Source: Acidimicrobiia bacterium (GTDB taxonomy: Bacteria; Actinomycetota; Acidimicrobiia; Spongiisociales; ZC4RG35). Taken from it: a stretch of 64,000 bases of DNA. The notes beneath the pieces were generated by a model, which was not told the origin of the DNA, did not search any database, and saw nothing but the letters and a program-made list of their open reading frames with translations. Of this stretch, positions 8,340-60,182 are shown piece after piece (position 1 is the stretch's first letter; each line of letters begins with the position of its first letter). The position numbers and the translations under genes were made by a program. Location: NCBI GenBank assembly GCA_036555105.1, contig DATBMA010000023.1, forward strand, positions 3,786 to 67,785. Direction: 5' to 3'.

Positions 8340-10274
8340 GTGGCACTAGACCTTGTGTATCCCGACGGGGCCACGGCCGCCTTTCCGGACGGAACTACCG
8401 GGCGATCCGTGGCCGCATCGATCGGGCGACGGCTCGCCCAAGCCGCGGTCGCAGTGAGGCTCGATGGCGAGCTGTTCGACCTCGACCGACCGCTCCCGGG
8501 CAGTGGGAAGTTCGAGGTGGTGACCGACACCTCCGACGACGGCCGTTCGGTCCTCCGCCACTCCGCAGCGCACATCCTGGCGCAGGCAGTACTGGGGCTG
8601 TTCCCGGGAGCCACTTTCGCAATCGGTCCCGCCATTGCGGACGGCTTCTATTACGACTTCGACATAGGGCGCCCCTTCACCCCCGACGACCTGGCGGCTA
8701 TCGAGGCGCGGATGTCTGAGATCGTGGCGGGGGATCAGCCATTCGTCCGGGAGTCGGTGGGTCGCCAGGAGGCATTGGAGATCTTCTCCGACCACCCGTT
8801 CAAGCGAGAGATCATCGAAGGGGTCGAGCCGGGCGAGGTCGACGACGGCTCCGAAGTCACGCTTTACCGAAACCTCGACTTCGTCGACCTCTGCAGAGGT
8901 CCTCACCTGCCTTCGACCGGGAGGCTGGCTGCCTTCAAGCTCCTGCGCACGGCCGGTGCGTACTGGAGGGGGGACGAGAGTCGCCAGCAACTCCAGCGCA
9001 TTTATGGGACGGCCTGGGAGAGCGAGAAGGCACTCGGCGACTATCTGCTGAGGCTGGAGGAAGCCGAGAAGCGCGATCACCGCCGTCTGGGGCCGGAGCT
9101 CGACCTCTACAGCTTCCCCCGTGCGCTCGGTCCCGGGTTGCTCGTCTGGCATCCGCGCGGAGGCATGGTGCGCAAGCTCATGGAGGACCACTCGCGCCGC
9201 CTTCATGAGCGGTTCGGCTTCGAGTTCGTGAGCACTCCGCACGTGGCCCGCGAGGAGCTCTGGGAGATCTCTGGCCATCTCGGCTACTACGCCGAGAACA
9301 TGTACCCGGCCATGGAGGCCGACGACGGCGAGCGTTATCGGATCAAGCCGATGAACTGCCCAGGGCATATCCTCATCTATCAGAGCAAGAGCCGAAGTTA
9401 TCGGGACCTCCCGATGCGCCTCTCCGAGCTCGGCGCGGTCTACCGGTACGAACGGTCGGGGGTGGTGCACGGAGCATTGCGGGCTCGGGGATTCACCCAG
9501 GACGACTCCCATACTTTCTGCACCCGCGATCAGCTGCCGTCTGAGCTGGGGCGCCACCTCAAATTCGTCATGACCTGGCTGCGGGATTTCGGCTTCGAGG
9601 AGTTCGAGGCCGAGCTCTCGACCAAGCCCGACAATTCGGTGGGTGAGGCCGAGCTGTGGGAGGTTGCCGAGCGCGAGTTGGAGGCCGCCCTCAAGGATGC
9701 CGGCCTCGACTACCGGGTGGCCGCGGGCGAGGGGGCTTTCTACGGGCCCAAGATCGATGTGCACGTGAAGGATGCGATCGGGCGTAAATGGCAGATGTCG
9801 ACGGTGCAGCTCGACTTCGGTCTGCCGGAGCGATTCCAACTCGAGTACACGGCACCCGACAATCATCCGGCCCGGCCGGTGATGATCCATTGCGCCAAGG
9901 CCGGATCGATCGAACGGTTCATGGGGGTCCTGGTCGAGCACTACGCGGGCGCCTTCCCGATGTGGCTGGCCCCGGTGCAAGTCACGGTGGTGCCGGTGGC
10001 GGATCGCCATTGCCAGTACGCCACTCAAGTGGCTACCCAGCTCCGCGAGGCCGGGCTCAGGGTGGAGGTGGACGGCGGTGACGACACGGTTGGCGAGAAG
10101 ATCCGGCGGGCACTGACCCATAAGACCCCGGCCGTGCTGGTGACCGGGGACAAGGACGAGTCGGCTGGGACTGTCGGGATGCGCAGGTACGGTGAGGAGG
10201 AAGAGCGGCGCGGCGTGAGGTTGGATCAGGCGATTCAGGAATTGACCGACTCTGCCCGATCGCCCGGGGACTGA
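8340..10274 (+). CDS. thrS: threonine--tRNA ligase
   Basis: 644 aa; TGS/editing N-domain with HSAAHILAQAV, class II core motifs and a C-terminal anticodon-binding domain; GTG start. Confidence 0.95.
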   Translation: MALDLVYPDGATAAFPDGTTGRSVAASIGRRLAQAAVAVRLDGELFDLDRPLPGSGKFEVVTDTSDDGRSVLRHSAAHILAQAVLGLFPGATFAIGPAIADGFYYDFDIGRPFTPDDLAAIEARMSEIVAGDQPFVRESVGRQEALEIFSDHPFKREIIEGVEPGEVDDGSEVTLYRNLDFVDLCRGPHLPSTGRLAAFKLLRTAGAYWRGDESRQQLQRIYGTAWESEKALGDYLLRLEEAEKRDHRRLGPELDLYSFPRALGPGLLVWHPRGGMVRKLMEDHSRRLHERFGFEFVSTPHVAREELWEISGHLGYYAENMYPAMEADDGERYRIKPMNCPGHILIYQSKSRSYRDLPMRLSELGAVYRYERSGVVHGALRARGFTQDDSHTFCTRDQLPSELGRHLKFVMTWLRDFGFEEFEAELSTKPDNSVGEAELWEVAERELEAALKDAGLDYRVAAGEGAFYGPKIDVHVKDAIGRKWQMSTVQLDFGLPERFQLEYTAPDNHPARPVMIHCAKAGSIERFMGVLVEHYAGAFPMWLAPVQVTVVPVADRHCQYATQVATQLREAGLRVEVDGGDDTVGEKIRRALTHKTPAVLVTGDKDESAGTVGMRRYGEEEERRGVRLDQAIQELTDSARSPGD

Positions 10275-10753
10275 TGGACGGCATCGAGATACCCCGCGAG
10301 GTTGCGGACTCGGTCGACCTGCCGGGCGACCTCGACTCCAGCCAGGGTGGTCCCTATCGGTTTCCCGATCCACGCCGCCGTCGCATCTCGGCGGCGGTAT
10401 TCGTAGTAGCGGCTGCGGTCATGTGGTTCGTGATCCCGGCCGGGGTCGGCCGAATGGTGGCGATCGTCATCGCCCTCGGGTTGGCAGCCTGGAATGCGGC
10501 CGGAGCCTGGGAAGTGAAGGTCGATCAGGGGCGGGCGCTCTCACTGGCTGCCCCCGCCGCCCCCTTTGCGATCGGCCAGATCTCGGCGGCGCTGACCTTT
10601 CATGGCCTGCGGGCCCGACCCCGGTGGCACGTTCTCATATATGAGGCCTCGGATCCGCCCCGTCACCGGGCGCTGGTGGTCATCGACGCCATCACCGCCG
10701 CTCGGCTGGGCGAGCCGTTGGTGGAGACGCTTGGTGGGGCCGTTCGGGCCTGA
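10274..10753 (+). CDS. hypothetical small membrane protein
   Basis: 159 aa with two or three TM helices; ATG overlaps the thrS stop (TGATG); strong codon bias. Confidence 0.5.
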   Translation: MDGIEIPREVADSVDLPGDLDSSQGGPYRFPDPRRRRISAAVFVVAAAVMWFVIPAGVGRMVAIVIALGLAAWNAAGAWEVKVDQGRALSLAAPAAPFAIGQISAALTFHGLRARPRWHVLIYEASDPPRHRALVVIDAITAARLGEPLVETLGGAVRA

Positions 10754-18279: not shown

Positions 18280-19026
18280 ATGTCCGGACATTCGAAGTGG
18301 GCGACGATCAAGAGGAAGAAAGCGGCCAACGACGCCCGCCGCGGGCAGCTCTTCGGCAAGCTCATCAAGGCCGTCGAGGTGGCGGCTCGAGCGGGCGGGG
18401 GCGACCCGGGCGGCAACGCCACGTTGGCTGCGGCCATCGCCAAGGCCAGGTCCAACGCGGTGCCGGCCGACAACATCGAACGGGCCATAAAGCGGGCGAC
18501 CGGTGCCGGCGACGGCGCAACGTACGAGGAGATCTGGTACGAGGGCTACGCCCCGGGAGGGGTTGCCCTCTATGTTCAGGTCGTCACCGACAATCGGAAT
18601 CGAGCGGCCTCGGACGTTCGGGCCACTTTCACCCGCAACCACGGGAACCTCGGGGAGCCCGGCTCGGTCGGCTACCTGTTCGAGCAGAAGGGCTACCTGG
18701 AGGTGGCGGGAGAGGAGGACGCAGTGCTGATGGCTGCGCTCGAAGCCGGGGCCGAGGATGTCAAGCCAGGCGACGAAGAGGGATTCCAGGTCTACACCGC
18801 CCCCGCCGACCTGTTTCCGGTCCAGCGTGGGATCGAACAGGCCGGCTTGGCTGTTGCCTCGGCCGACCTCGTCCAGGTCCCCAAGACCTCGGTGCAACTC
18901 GACGCAGCCGGCGCCGCCAAGGTTCTGCGGCTGGTCGACGCCCTCGAGGACCTCGACGACGTCCAGGCGGTGTATGGCAATTACGAGATGGACGACGAGG
19001 TGATGGCCGCCCTCGCAGGCGACTGA
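18280..19026 (+). CDS. yebC: YebC/PmpR-family probable transcriptional regulator
   Basis: MSGHSKWATIKRKKAANDARRGQLFGKLIKAV N-terminus is diagnostic for YebC; GGAG RBS; start 3 nt after the pdxT stop. Confidence 0.9.
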   Translation: MSGHSKWATIKRKKAANDARRGQLFGKLIKAVEVAARAGGGDPGGNATLAAAIAKARSNAVPADNIERAIKRATGAGDGATYEEIWYEGYAPGGVALYVQVVTDNRNRAASDVRATFTRNHGNLGEPGSVGYLFEQKGYLEVAGEEDAVLMAALEAGAEDVKPGDEEGFQVYTAPADLFPVQRGIEQAGLAVASADLVQVPKTSVQLDAAGAAKVLRLVDALEDLDDVQAVYGNYEMDDEVMAALAGD

Positions 19027-37416: not shown

Positions 37417-38495
37417 CACTCACCCCTTCCACTACCCGTGTTCCGCGCTGGCTGCGCGTTCTGGCGGCGGTCGCAGTGACCGCCATCGTCGTCGTGGTCG
37501 GAGCCACCACCCTGGGCAGGATGGTGGCCGACCGGGTGGGCAGCGGTGGCGGTGGCACCAACGTGACGGTGCTGCCCGGACAAGAAGTCGACGTGAGCAT
37601 CCCGCCAGGCTCCAGCGCCCAGGAGATCGCGGCGATCCTCGCCGCGCAGGGGGTGGTTTCGTCTTCGACGGAGTTCGAGCTCGCAGTCCGAGCCTCAGGC
37701 ACCGCCTCTCAGCTGAAGGCCGGCACCTACACACTGCTCACCGGCATGCAACCCGGCGAAGTGGTGACCCTGCTGGTCAGGGGTCCCGTCGCCGAGACGT
37801 ATCGCATCACTGTCCGCGAGGGGCTCCGAGTGTCGGAGATGCTCGATGTCCTCTCCGAGGCTTCGGGCATCCCGGTCGCTGAACTCGAGGACGCACTCAC
37901 CAATGGCACCGTCACGACGTCACTCCGCCAGATGCCGGCCACACCGGCGGTGGCCGATTGGGAAGGGCTCCTCTTCCCAGACACCTACGAGTTCCTGCGC
38001 ACGGCCACCGCCACCCAGATCTTGCAGAGGCTGGCCGAGACCATGGAGTCGAGAGTCGCCGCCATCGACTGGGCCCGCTTCCAGCAGGCCGGCTTCAACA
38101 AGTATCAGGGCATAGTCATCGCCTCGATGATCGAGTCGGAGGTGAGGGTGCCATCGGAGCGCCCCCTGGTCTCGAGCGTCATCCGAAACCGCCTTGACCA
38201 GGAGATGCCGCTCCAAATCGACGCCACCGTCCTCTATGCACTGGGGACACGGGACATCGCGGAGTTCGACAGCGACTTCGACTCGCCCTTCAACACCTAC
38301 AAAGTCGCCGGCTTGCCACCGGCGCCTATCTCCGCCCCCGGCCGGGCCTCCCTCGAAGCCGCGGCATCGCCGGCGGCGAGCGATTACCTCTTCTACGTCC
38401 TGTCGGCCGCCGATGGGAGCCACACCTTCACCACCAACTACGCCGACCATCAGCAGGCCGTCGCCCAAGCCAAGGCCGACGGAATCATCCCCTGA
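37413..38495 (+). CDS. mltG: endolytic murein transglycosylase MltG (YceG-like)
   Basis: N-terminal TM, LysM-like region and a YceG domain (LLFPDTYEF, ...SMIESE); ATGA overlap with ruvX. Confidence 0.9.
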   Translation: MTLTPSTTRVPRWLRVLAAVAVTAIVVVVGATTLGRMVADRVGSGGGGTNVTVLPGQEVDVSIPPGSSAQEIAAILAAQGVVSSSTEFELAVRASGTASQLKAGTYTLLTGMQPGEVVTLLVRGPVAETYRITVREGLRVSEMLDVLSEASGIPVAELEDALTNGTVTTSLRQMPATPAVADWEGLLFPDTYEFLRTATATQILQRLAETMESRVAAIDWARFQQAGFNKYQGIVIASMIESEVRVPSERPLVSSVIRNRLDQEMPLQIDATVLYALGTRDIAEFDSDFDSPFNTYKVAGLPPAPISAPGRASLEAAASPAASDYLFYVLSAADGSHTFTTNYADHQQAVAQAKADGIIP

Positions 38496-52010: not shown

Positions 52011-52029
<19 letters not shown>

Positions 52030-57210: not shown

Positions 57211-58389
57211 ATGCGGCGCTGGTACTTCGCTTCTGAATCGGTCACGGAGGGTCATCCCGACAAGGTGGCAGACGCCATCTCCGACTCGGTTCTCGATGCC
57301 GTCCTGGCTCAGGATCCGATGGGCCGGGTCGCCTGTGAATCAATGGTCACGACCGGTGTCGCCGTCGTCGCCGGAGAGATCTCTTCGCAGGCGGTGATAG
57401 ACATCGAAGCTCTCACCAGGTCGACAGTTGCCGACCTTGGCTATGACTTCGACCCAGAGTTCTCGGCCGACACGATACGTGTCCAGTCGCTCGTCCACAG
57501 CCAGAGCCCGGACATCGCCGCCAGCGTGACACGATCCCTCGAAGATCGGTCTGGCTCCCAGGATCCCCTTGATGCGCTGGGGGCCGGTGACCAAGGGATC
57601 ATGTTCGGATTCGCGGTAGACGAGACGAGCGAACTGATGCCACTTCCCATTCAACTCGCCCATCGCCTGGCCGAGAGGCTCGCCGCGGTGCGGCGTGAGG
57701 GGTTGCTCGGCTATTTGCGCCCCGATGGCAAGACCCAGGTGACGGTCGAGTACGAAGGAGACCGGCCGCTTCGAGTCACCTCGGCTCTGATTTCCGCCCA
57801 CCACGCCCCCGGGGTCGACTCGAAGGCGATGGCCGCTGATCTCCGGGCCGAGGTGGTCGAACGGGTCATACCTGACGACCTGCTGGCAGGAGATGTCGCC
57901 GTTCTCATCAACCCCTCCGGCAACTTCGAGGTCGGCGGGCCTCCGGCCGACACCGGCCTCACTGGCCGCAAGATCATCGTCGACACCTATGGGGGATATG
58001 CCCGTCACGGTGGGGGTGCCTTCTCGGGGAAGGACCCCACCAAGGTGGATCGATCGGGGGCCTATGCCGCCCGCCACGCCGCCAAGAACGTCGTGGCCGC
58101 GGGTCTGGCAAGGCGATGCGAGGTTCAGCTGGCATATGCCATCGGCCAGGCCGCCCCCTTCTCCATCCATGTCGACACCTTTGGCACCGCCAACATCGCC
58201 CCCGAGCGCCTCGACAAGTTGGTGGGCGAATACTTCGACTTCCGGCCGGCCGCCATCCTCCAGCGCCTGGGACTGCGCGCGCCGGTCTACCGACCAACCT
58301 CCGCTTACGGTCACTTCGGTCGCCCGGGCTTCCCATGGGAGTCAACGGAGGAGGCCGAGGCCCTCGCCGCAGCCGCCGAACAGTTCTGA
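57211..58389 (+). CDS. metK: S-adenosylmethionine synthase
   Basis: FASESVTEGHPDKVAD ... GGGAFSGKDPTKVDRSGAYAARH. Confidence 0.95.
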   Translation: MRRWYFASESVTEGHPDKVADAISDSVLDAVLAQDPMGRVACESMVTTGVAVVAGEISSQAVIDIEALTRSTVADLGYDFDPEFSADTIRVQSLVHSQSPDIAASVTRSLEDRSGSQDPLDALGAGDQGIMFGFAVDETSELMPLPIQLAHRLAERLAAVRREGLLGYLRPDGKTQVTVEYEGDRPLRVTSALISAHHAPGVDSKAMAADLRAEVVERVIPDDLLAGDVAVLINPSGNFEVGGPPADTGLTGRKIIVDTYGGYARHGGGAFSGKDPTKVDRSGAYAARHAAKNVVAAGLARRCEVQLAYAIGQAAPFSIHVDTFGTANIAPERLDKLVGEYFDFRPAAILQRLGLRAPVYRPTSAYGHFGRPGFPWESTEEAEALAAAAEQF

Positions 58390-60182
58390 GCCAGCCAGAG
58401 CCCATCAGAGCCGCCCGGGTCGTTCCCGCCGTTCCGACCTTCGCGGTCGATGCCGGGTTCTGGTATTCGATCCCCGACCACATGACGGTGGGATTGGGAA
58501 CGGCGGTCAGGGTCCCGCTGGGTGGACGGCGGACTGGTGGCCACGTGGTCGAGATCGGGGAGCGATCGCCCGAGCGACTGCGCCCGATCGCGTCCGTGTC
58601 CAGCCCGATCCCGATCTTCGACGCCCCGCTCTTGGAGGTCTTGATGTGGGCGGCCCATCACTATGTGGCACCGGTCTCGGTTCTGCTCGAGAAGGCGGCG
58701 CCACCCAATCGTCCCCGCCGGCCCGACCCGGGTTTGTTGCCTGCTCGCCTAGATGGGGCTGGCGCGGGCGGGCTGGACGCTCTCGGTCGGAGGAGCGCGG
58801 CCGGAGGAACCGGGGTCAGATTGGCCTATGTGAGCCGGGCGGCCGATCTCGGCTGGATCGCCGGACTGGCCGGCCCGGTGATGGCGGCGGGCGGGGGCTG
58901 CCTGATCGTGATGCCGACGGGGGCCGAAGTGTCGATGGCGGAGACGGCTGCGCGGCCCTTGCTGGGGGACCACTTGTTGACAGTCGACAATGATCGATCC
59001 GACGCCGAGGTCACCAGGGCTTGGGAGATGGCCGCCACCGTCGCCGGGGTGGCGCTGGTCGGGACCCCGCGGGTGGCGTCATGGCCGGTTCGCGATCTCC
59101 GTGTCGCCGCTGCCACCGAGGAGGGGCGCCGGGCTATGAAGGAGCGGCAGACACCGACCGTTGCTGTGAGGGAGCTCCTTTCCAGGCGGGCTGTCGCCAC
59201 TCCCCACAACCTGGCCTTTGTTGGGCCGACGCCGAGCATCGAGTGCCTCGGATCCGGGCTCGAGGAGGTCACCGCTCCCGGCAGGAGTTGGGGACTGGTC
59301 GAGCTCGTGGATCGGACCCGTGATGAGCAGAGCCGGGATCTGATCTCTCCGACCCTGGCCGCCGCGTTGCGCCGGGTGTTGGCCAATGGGGAGTCTGCAT
59401 TCGTATTTGCCCACCGGCGTGGATACGCCCCGGCATTCGTCTGCATCCAGTGCCGCAACGTGCGCCGGTGCCAGGTCTGCGGCGCCCGTCCCGAGCCAGG
59501 ACTCAGCTGCGTTCGTTGCGGGGCCGTGCTGGGGCCATGTGCCCATTGCGGCTCCGAGCGCTTTCGCCCACTGGGGGCCGGCGTGCAGCGGGTCGTGGAG
59601 ACCCTGACCCGAGTGTTTGGAGCCCAATCGGTCGGGGCCGCACCGGCGGCCACCGAGATACAGGTGGGGAGCGAAGCCGACCTGGCCGCCCTCCCCATCC
59701 AGGACCTGATGGGGGTGGTCGATGCCGACGGGCTGCTGCTCGGCACGCACTTCCGCGCGGCCGAAGAAGCCATCCGCATCCTTGGGCGGGTCGCAGGCAA
59801 AGTCGGACGAGGCGGAACCCGGCGGGCGATAGTGCAGACCGCGCTGCCCGGCCATCCAGCCATGGTCGCCCTCAAGAGCGGGAAGGCGCTTCCGTTCCTG
59901 CATTCAGAGCTGGCCATCCGGCGCCAACTCGGCTATCCGCCCGCTGGCGAGCTGATGATCGTGGAGCTGCGGGGTCAGGTGCCGGCCGATCCGCGGCGGG
60001 CCTTGGTCCAGCTCGACGACGGCATCGACCTGTTGGGGCCGGCCGAGACGCGCCATGGGATTCGATTCCTCGCCCAAGGCAACAGCCTCGACATGCTCCG
60101 CACCGGCCTTCGACCCGTCGTGCAGCGCTGGCGCGACTCGGGCACGATCGTGCGCATCGACGCCGACCCGCTGGAGTTGTGA
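58386..60182 (+). CDS. priA: primosomal protein N' (PriA), helicase-motif-degenerate actinobacterial type; start codon unresolved (CTG proposed)
   Basis: Conserved N-terminus LSQPEPIRAARVVP aligns to mycobacterial PriA residues 1-13; C4-C4 zinc region CIQCRNVRRCQVCG...CVRCG...CAHCG; no GxGKT Walker A or DExH motif; no ATG/GTG/TTG between the metK stop and the conserved N-terminus. Confidence 0.8.
   Translation: MSQPEPIRAARVVPAVPTFAVDAGFWYSIPDHMTVGLGTAVRVPLGGRRTGGHVVEIGERSPERLRPIASVSSPIPIFDAPLLEVLMWAAHHYVAPVSVLLEKAAPPNRPRRPDPGLLPARLDGAGAGGLDALGRRSAAGGTGVRLAYVSRAADLGWIAGLAGPVMAAGGGCLIVMPTGAEVSMAETAARPLLGDHLLTVDNDRSDAEVTRAWEMAATVAGVALVGTPRVASWPVRDLRVAAATEEGRRAMKERQTPTVAVRELLSRRAVATPHNLAFVGPTPSIECLGSGLEEVTAPGRSWGLVELVDRTRDEQSRDLISPTLAAALRRVLANGESAFVFAHRRGYAPAFVCIQCRNVRRCQVCGARPEPGLSCVRCGAVLGPCAHCGSERFRPLGAGVQRVVETLTRVFGAQSVGAAPAATEIQVGSEADLAALPIQDLMGVVDADGLLLGTHFRAAEEAIRILGRVAGKVGRGGTRRAIVQTALPGHPAMVALKSGKALPFLHSELAIRRQLGYPPAGELMIVELRGQVPADPRRALVQLDDGIDLLGPAETRHGIRFLAQGNSLDMLRTGLRPVVQRWRDSGTIVRIDADPLEL

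Follow-up and report, generated by a model that had tools for sequence, protein, structure and literature searches.

Translational coupling by termination-reinitiation is well documented at 4-nucleotide (4-nt) ATGA and GTGA overlaps (PMC6728339, Huber et al. 2019; PMC10666635; PMC3592434). Here, we examine such an overlap between metK, which encodes S-adenosylmethionine synthetase, and priA, which encodes primosomal protein N', in a 64,000-nt stretch of DNA from an Acidimicrobiia bacterium (GenBank assembly GCA_036555105.1, contig DATBMA010000023.1, positions 3,786 to 67,785 of the forward strand), referred to below as the window. The metK-priA pair is like well-known coupled pairs, such as trpB-trpA of Escherichia coli, in that the two genes are codirectional, the stop and start codons share an NTGA tetranucleotide, and priA lies in the frame of the NTG; the same genomes also use ATGA and GTGA overlaps abundantly, as in known coupling. 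The difference lies in the start codon, which is CTG at this junction. CTG is not considered as a start in the overlap surveys of PMC6728339 and PMC10666635, and the searched passages of the latter mention neither CTG nor CUG. On the evidence assembled below, translation of priA very probably begins at CTG 58386, where reinitiation would be coupled to the termination of metK and the output of PriA would be very low.

Starts at near-cognate codons have precedents too. By analogy, the nearest is Streptomyces sigR, whose conserved GTC start holds SigR at a lower level than its anti-sigma factor and is both repressed by initiation factor 3 (IF3) and misannotated everywhere (Feeney et al. 2017, PMC5472188). 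Like sigR, priA is an actinobacterial gene with a noncanonical start that is conserved in many species, misannotated to a nearby canonical codon, and interpreted as keeping the protein scarcer than its partner. The sigR start, however, is a de novo start with a strong, conserved ribosome-binding site, a third-base mismatch (GTC), and conservation within one genus, whereas priA combines a first-base mismatch (CTG), a stop/start overlap, little or no Shine-Dalgarno (SD) sequence, and class-wide conservation. The AUU and AUC starts of infC, which serve IF3 autoregulation, and other E. coli near-cognate starts likewise pair a near-cognate codon with low output, but the infC codon serves feedback on the fidelity factor itself, and no such loop is evident for priA. 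CUG initiates at 1 to 2% of the AUG level in E. coli, a value that comes from SD-driven reporters and not from reinitiation (Hecht et al., 10.1101/063800). Overlap coupling and near-cognate starts are thus each known already, and no new kind of machinery is involved. We found no description in the literature of a priA CTG start or of CTGA overlap starts; one paper that matched (PMC4648390) is eukaryotic and irrelevant.

The metK-priA junction and its conservation

The 3' end of metK reads CAG TTC TGA, followed by gcc, which places a CTG over the stop codon in the frame of priA (Table 1). An earlier, sequence-only reading of the window had proposed that priA lacks a canonical start before its conserved N terminus and that the CTG embedded in this CTGA is used instead; both the sequence and the frame are as it described. 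Canonical starts in the priA frame near the junction are limited to ATG 58116 (90 codons upstream of the CTG), ATG 58335 (17 codons upstream), and ATG 58482, of which the first two lie within metK, and no ATG, GTG, or TTG occurs in that frame between ATG 58335 and ATG 58482. The same reading was right that ATG 58335 sits 55 nt inside metK without an SD (anti-SD pairing of -2.9 kcal/mol) and that the next in-frame ATG, which it placed about 30 codons downstream and which is 32 codons away, would remove a conserved segment; its statement that ATG 58335 is the only upstream in-frame ATG overlooked ATG 58116. The full-length priA open reading frame (ORF) is intact in the window, and the MetK translation matches all three S-AdoMet synthetase Pfam domains. 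Because three independent public assemblies share the identical junction, the CTG is not a sequencing error. In any one genome, an in-frame CTGA has a chance of about 15% of occurring (C at about 44% of third positions, multiplied by 1/3 for the frame), and therefore its significance comes from comparative data only.

For the comparison, we used 80 species-representative Acidimicrobiia loci around priA, with metK directly upstream in 79. In each, we mapped the stop of metK and the priA codon that aligns with the first conserved residue of the protein (Arg of ARVVP). Mycobacterial PriA, which the sequence-only reading had aligned with the window protein, is not the relevant comparison because the lineage is Acidimicrobiia. 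These loci are diverse: the median N-terminal identity of PriA among loci is 46%. The C-terminal 150 amino acids of MetK show 62 to 83% identity in the 79 relatives. Beyond an identical protein, the nearest PriA homologue is 66% identical and the others are about 50% identical, and these homologues place the source among the Acidimicrobiia. In the 79 relatives, the junction reads CTGA in 72, TTGA in 2, ATGA in 2, and GTGA in none, with TAA or TAG stops in the other three. Unlike in known overlap coupling, then, the start is noncanonical in 72 of 79 and canonical in only 4, and the strong variants are avoided. The closest relative, L081 (66% identity), has ttCTGA at the same 29-nt spacing from the conserved Arg as the window, and ttCTGA is also the junction of L030. 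When PriA proteins are grouped at 70% identity, CTGA is found in 45 of the 49 clusters.

The distance from the metK stop to the conserved Arg takes 13 lengths (8, 11, 14, 17, 20, 23, 26, 29, 32, 62, 68, 71, and 80 nt), all of which are 2 modulo 3, so that priA always stays in the frame of the junction xTG. A start just before the conserved domain cannot explain 13 lengths in phase, and translation must traverse the junction region in this frame. The sole exception to the frame is L046, in which a TAG stop is followed by a 61-nt spacer with GTG codons right before the conserved Arg. The pooled spacers hold a single in-frame stop in 1590 nt.

Loci of equal spacing allow the xTG codon to be compared directly. 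At 8 nt, L048 and L068 have ATGA (MIARVVP) and L051 has TTGA, while L035 and L038 have CTGA (LIARVVP); at 14 nt, a spacing common to many CTGA loci, L012 has TTGA. A canonical start therefore fills exactly this codon in some lineages. Loci whose overlap is missing or broken have a canonical start instead: GTG in L036, L037, and L046, and an ordinary ATG past an intergenic gap in L067, in which metK is absent and priA follows directly after coaBC (MGAPEASQSIAQVVP; L067:1900-2040). A different arrangement is seen in L062 (2477-2504), where the junction reads ATAG and a near-cognate ATA, in frame with priA, overlaps the TAG stop. Nearby in this open frame, a GTG at the Pro-Trp codon, 16 codons up in metK, is the sole canonical start, with none from the junction to the conserved residue, and this ATAG may be a second type of noncanonical overlap start.

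Alternative starts were scored at the CTGA junctions of the window and of 71 relatives, 72 in all, with L030 left out. In 29 of them, the open frame contains no ATG, GTG, or TTG from the conserved Arg all the way back to the first in-frame stop upstream, and a canonical start lies between the CTG and the Arg in only 9. The frame opens just two codons before the CTG in L007, L011, and L015 (TAG CTC ACT CTG) and in L008 and L014 (TGA GAG CCT CTG), so that in these five loci the CTG is the sole near-cognate codon available. Conservation of the C itself was scored in 76 TGA-ending junctions, those of the window and of 75 relatives. The final metK codon has C as its third base in 72, A in 2, T in 2, and G in none, although third positions are mixed in the preceding 11 codons; moreover, a terminal Leu of MetK is encoded by CTC in 51 of 51 cases, though 48% of the Leu codons in these loci are CTG or TTG. 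As in infC- and sigR-type cases, a near-cognate codon thus stands where some orthologues have a canonical start, and it is conserved beyond synonymous drift, in many loci without an alternative canonical start. The sequence-only proposal that CTG is the likely priA start gains strong support from these relatives. It had also held that ATG or GTG at the homologous codon in relatives would mean an error in this genome; the relatives overwhelmingly carry CTGA instead, and the homologue of ATG 58335 is not conserved.

Table 1. Features of the metK-priA junction, in window positions
Feature	Positions	Strand	Remarks
metK (S-adenosylmethionine synthetase) coding sequence	57211..58389	+	start ATG 57211 inferred; stop TGA 58387-58389
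CTGA stop/start overlap	58386..58389	+	CTG 58386-58388, proposed priA initiation codon; TGA 58387-58389, metK stop
priA (primosomal protein N') coding sequence as proposed	58386..60182	+	598 codons including initiator; stop 60180-60182
T directly 5' of CTG	58385	+	second base of last metK codon TTC
Variable N-terminal linker codons SQPEPIRAA	58389..58415	+	between CTG and first conserved PriA residue
Conserved start of PriA 3'-DNA-binding domain, RVVPAVPTFAVDAGFWYSIPDH	58416..58481	+	Pfam profile positions 1-22
In-frame ATG within metK	58335..58337	+	CCA TGG of MetK FPWE motif; rival start
In-frame ATC, Ile of PIRAARVVP	58404..58406	+	near-cognate rival start
First downstream in-frame ATG, Met of DHMTVGLG	58482..58484	+	32 codons past CTG
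GGAGGAGG inside metK, codons for T-E-E-A	58347..58354	+	31 nt before CTG

Weak coupling as a possible selected trait

The CTGA is particular to metK-priA. Among the 4-nt overlaps between coding-like ORFs of the window, 9 are ATGA, 9 are GTGA, and 5 are CTGA, and at other junctions in the 80 loci we counted 58 GTGA, 37 ATGA, 14 TTGA, and 18 CTGA. Most of these 18 CTGA matches either belong to antisense shadow ORFs or have an obvious canonical start after them. CTG as a general trait of coupling sites was therefore rejected: overlaps otherwise use normal starts, and the CTGA is a property of this junction and not of the general translation apparatus.

We propose that ribosomes completing metK would terminate at the UGA and that a small fraction of them would reinitiate on the overlapping CUG with the initiator tRNA, with no SD needed. 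An unusual initiator tRNA was considered as well, and the 64-kb window has no tRNA genes. Beyond the arrangement of the junction, we infer that initiation truly takes place at CTG 58386, that the initiator tRNA reads the CUG, and that this is reinitiation and not de novo initiation. The N terminus of PriA would then be fMet-Ser-Gln-Pro-Glu-Pro-Ile-Arg-Ala-Ala-Arg-Val-Val-Pro. As the weakest of the four NUG codons at an overlap, CUG would link abundant MetK to very scarce PriA. MetK is an abundant enzyme, and PriA is required in very few copies; a strong overlap start would overproduce PriA. The coupling appears, from the codons that are kept and avoided, to be tuned to pass on very little translation rather than to yield equimolar products. 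The absence of GTGA, a single synonymous change away, fits selection for low yield, and a low PriA dosage may itself be the selected trait. The junction offers an unusually clean natural case for weak-start selection, with a codon fixed class-wide and GTG never seen, even though other overlaps in these genomes start with GTG more often than with any other codon.

A further feature of the junction is the base before the CTG, which is T in 62 of 72 CTGA junctions and in only 11 of 95 other ATGA or GTGA overlaps of the same loci. The wider junction consensus is CTCTGA(G/C)C. In E. coli, a U at -1 pairs with A37 of the initiator tRNA and raises initiation (PMC10018350), and such pairing may partly offset the first-base mismatch of CTG. 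The junction could serve as a system for studying start-codon reading during termination-reinitiation and whether U(-1) compensates for a first-base mismatch.

More tentatively, the CTGA might be a selected attenuated-coupling device, in which the weakest NTGA has been fixed and PriA comes only from the rare metK-terminating ribosome that accepts the mismatch, aided by U(-1):A37 pairing. We regard this as a possibility that is more doubtful than not. If it were true, the supply of a replication-restart protein would be tied to the translation of S-adenosylmethionine synthetase and would respond to initiation fidelity (IF3) and, through it, to growth state or stress. Also, further hidden CTG or ATH overlap starts would be expected in Acidimicrobiia (e.g., in aroE and possibly pyrD), and the proteomes of the class would be systematically misannotated.

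Several observations count against initiation at the CTG or limit what can be read into it. Anti-SD pairing in the segment from -20 to -3 before CTG 58386 is +0.1 kcal/mol, which amounts to no SD, and GGAGGAGG is too distant to serve as one because it lies 31 nt upstream. Across loci, the SD signal is modest (median of -5.05 kcal/mol, compared with -2.9 kcal/mol inside metK). SD-driven initiation was rejected as the main determinant on these values, with relatives only weakly enriched. An SD is likewise missing from several genuine ATGA and GTGA junctions of the window, and SD-independent coupling is therefore plausible in this organism. The linker codons show no clear periodicity, with GC contents of 0.60, 0.67, and 0.70 by codon position, flat in long linkers, although the sample is small. 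The conserved T at -1 is inseparable from the conserved Leu or Phe with which MetK ends. Because the loci share a phylogeny, raw counts overstate their independence. The genome also has the open-frame ATG 17 codons upstream, such that some PriA could bear a 17-residue extension. Finally, our literature search found no N-terminomics or ribosome profiling (Ribo-seq) data for any Acidimicrobiia.

Competing starts at the junction

Public databases model priA from ATG 58335 (P0001). The protein would then have 615 residues, including the extension MGVNGGGRGPRRSRRTV, and the gene would overlap metK by 55 nt. Gene callers favor this position in 35 of 119 homologues as well; no start codon is stronger than ATG, and nothing closes the frame between 58335 and the conserved domain. 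Nevertheless, we consider this start unlikely. Across the loci, the homologous triplet varies between CTG (38), GTG (29), ATG (9), and TTG (3); that it is always NTG follows automatically from a Pro, Ser, or Thr codon next to the TGG of FPWE. At Pro-Trp sites, CCA occurs in 6 of about 51 (about 12%), compared with 9.2% of Pro codons overall, which gives no hint that an ATG is selected. In-frame stops part the homologous triplet from priA in about 14 loci. This ATG also lacks an SD and sits in an ORF that is translated in another frame, and initiation there leaves both the conservation of CTGA and the absence of GTGA unexplained. From these comparisons, ATG 58335 cannot be the conserved start and is most likely a by-product of the Pro CCA codon; its low-level use in this genome is possible. 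Internal promoters or terminators and a leaderless transcript from ATG 58335 were rejected too, as promoter-like and terminator-like sites are lacking across 57900-58700. A near-cognate start further downstream, at ATC 58404, is very improbable. ATC is a known near-cognate start, for instance in Streptomyces infC (PMC5472188), and homologues such as P0005, P0009 (MAAARVVP), and P0012 (VAAARVVP) begin at the aligned position three residues before the Arg. However, the homologous codon is GTC in the closest relative, L081 (which has GTG at the Pro-Trp triplet), and most CTGA loci have no ATH or extra near-cognate codon in the linker. With a start at ATC, the linker would be free to leave the frame set by the metK stop, but none of the 13 spacer lengths does so, and the ATC has no SD (-2.1 kcal/mol).

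The constant -1 frame of priA and the many loci without a canonical start would also be explained if priA had no initiation of its own and a -1 frameshift at the metK stop produced a MetK-PriA fusion. This is highly unlikely. The final metK codons (CTC, TTC, TCC, CGC, GAC, GCC, and CCC, with varied preceding bases) form no slippery site, as they bar -1 re-pairing in the P site. The RNA at and downstream of the junction folds no better than shuffled sequences (z = 0.34), leaving no structured element for frameshifting. Moreover, frameshifting gives no selection of C over G before the TGA, and the ATGA or TTGA found at the same place, or the separate canonical start found once the overlap is lost, points to independent initiation. 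Equally, it is scarcely credible that the product is truncated and starts at ATG 58482 or that the missing start reflects a sequencing error or a pseudogene. Truncated gene-caller models are carried by 62 of the 119 homologues, including that of the closest relative (P0002), which is called from the Met homologous to ATG 58482, but truncation at ATG 58482, residue 33, would drop 22 of the 96 profile positions of the DNA-binding domain, which are its most conserved part, and the lost segment shows synonymous variation in all relatives. The agreement of three assemblies and the intact ORF oppose an error or a pseudogene.

The PriA product, its gene models, and other CTGA overlaps

Started at the CTG, the predicted protein matches the Pfam family PF17764 (PriA 3'BD) with an E value of 8.3e-16 over residues 15 to 106, corresponding to positions 5 to 96 of the 96-position profile. 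The domain itself begins at about residue 11, i.e., about 10 residues after the CTG. The RVVPAVPTFAVDAGFWYSIPDH segment is conserved at the protein level with synonymous variation in all relatives, and on this pattern of variation it must be translated. Solved PriA structures match at 1e-29, and a Cys-rich zinc-binding region within the helicase core aligns to them; its four CxxC pairs (C353, C356, C362, C365, C375, C378, C385, and C388) are invariant in 35 sequences. The window PriA thus shares with PriA of known structure (PDB 4NL4, 6DGD, and 6DCR) the 3'BD domain, the zinc region, and homologous helicase-core and C-terminal regions. It differs, as do its class relatives, in being about 130 residues shorter, in having no recognizable Walker A, and in having TEEG in place of DEEH, which is found in E. 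coli and Klebsiella PriA. By inspection, the window PriA translation contains no GxGK[ST] motif, the relatives' consensus likewise has TEEG without GxGKT, and the phmmer alignment to 6DGD starts only past the Walker A position. ATPase or helicase activity of this PriA is accordingly doubtful from its motifs, which has no bearing on the start codon.

Of the 119 database homologues of PriA (P0002-P0120), 35 are called from the Pro-Trp codon of metK (MG... or VG...), 62 are cut into or beyond the ARVVPxVPxFxVD segment, and 22 start near the conserved Arg. If the CTG is the start, 97 of the 119 appear to be mis-started, either 14 to 17 codons into metK or within the DNA-binding domain. Gene callers usually do not accept CTG. 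A correct priA model is easily stated, as the start would be the CTG of the metK CTGA.

Other CTGA overlaps in the window were considered as well. The sequence-only reading had paired priA with aroE and suggested that the lineage uses CTG initiation at coupling sites generally. The aroE overlap is real: CTGA at 38492-38495, downstream of an mltG-like gene, lies in the aroE frame; from this CTG, the shikimate dehydrogenase N-domain (Shikimate_dh_N) begins at residue 7. There is no canonical start before the conserved GDPVDHSLSP; if translation began at the next ATG, 38564, Shikimate_dh_N would be truncated and its HSxSP motif lost. The generalization is supported in part only, given the GTGA and ATGA at other overlaps and the canonical starts of most aroE relatives, which have Met or Val 6 to 10 residues ahead of the GDP motif. 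For the same reason, aroE was rejected as a class-conserved second CTGA case, and its overlap looks like a lineage-specific, not class-wide, loss of a canonical start. Nor is the CTG the only candidate there: ATC 38498 matches the second commonest Met position of aroE, 6 residues before GDP, and is an equally good candidate start.

The carB stop also overlaps a CTG (CTGA at 52026; region 52011-52029) that is in frame with a downstream pyrD-like ORF, and this ORF has a canonical start 5 codons upstream, inside carB. Two further CTGA occurrences are coincidental. The one at 19023-19026 precedes a RuvC-like ORF with an obvious ATG 17 codons later (MLVMGIDP), and the one at 10271-10275 is part of CTGATG, which is a normal TGATG 1-nt overlap.

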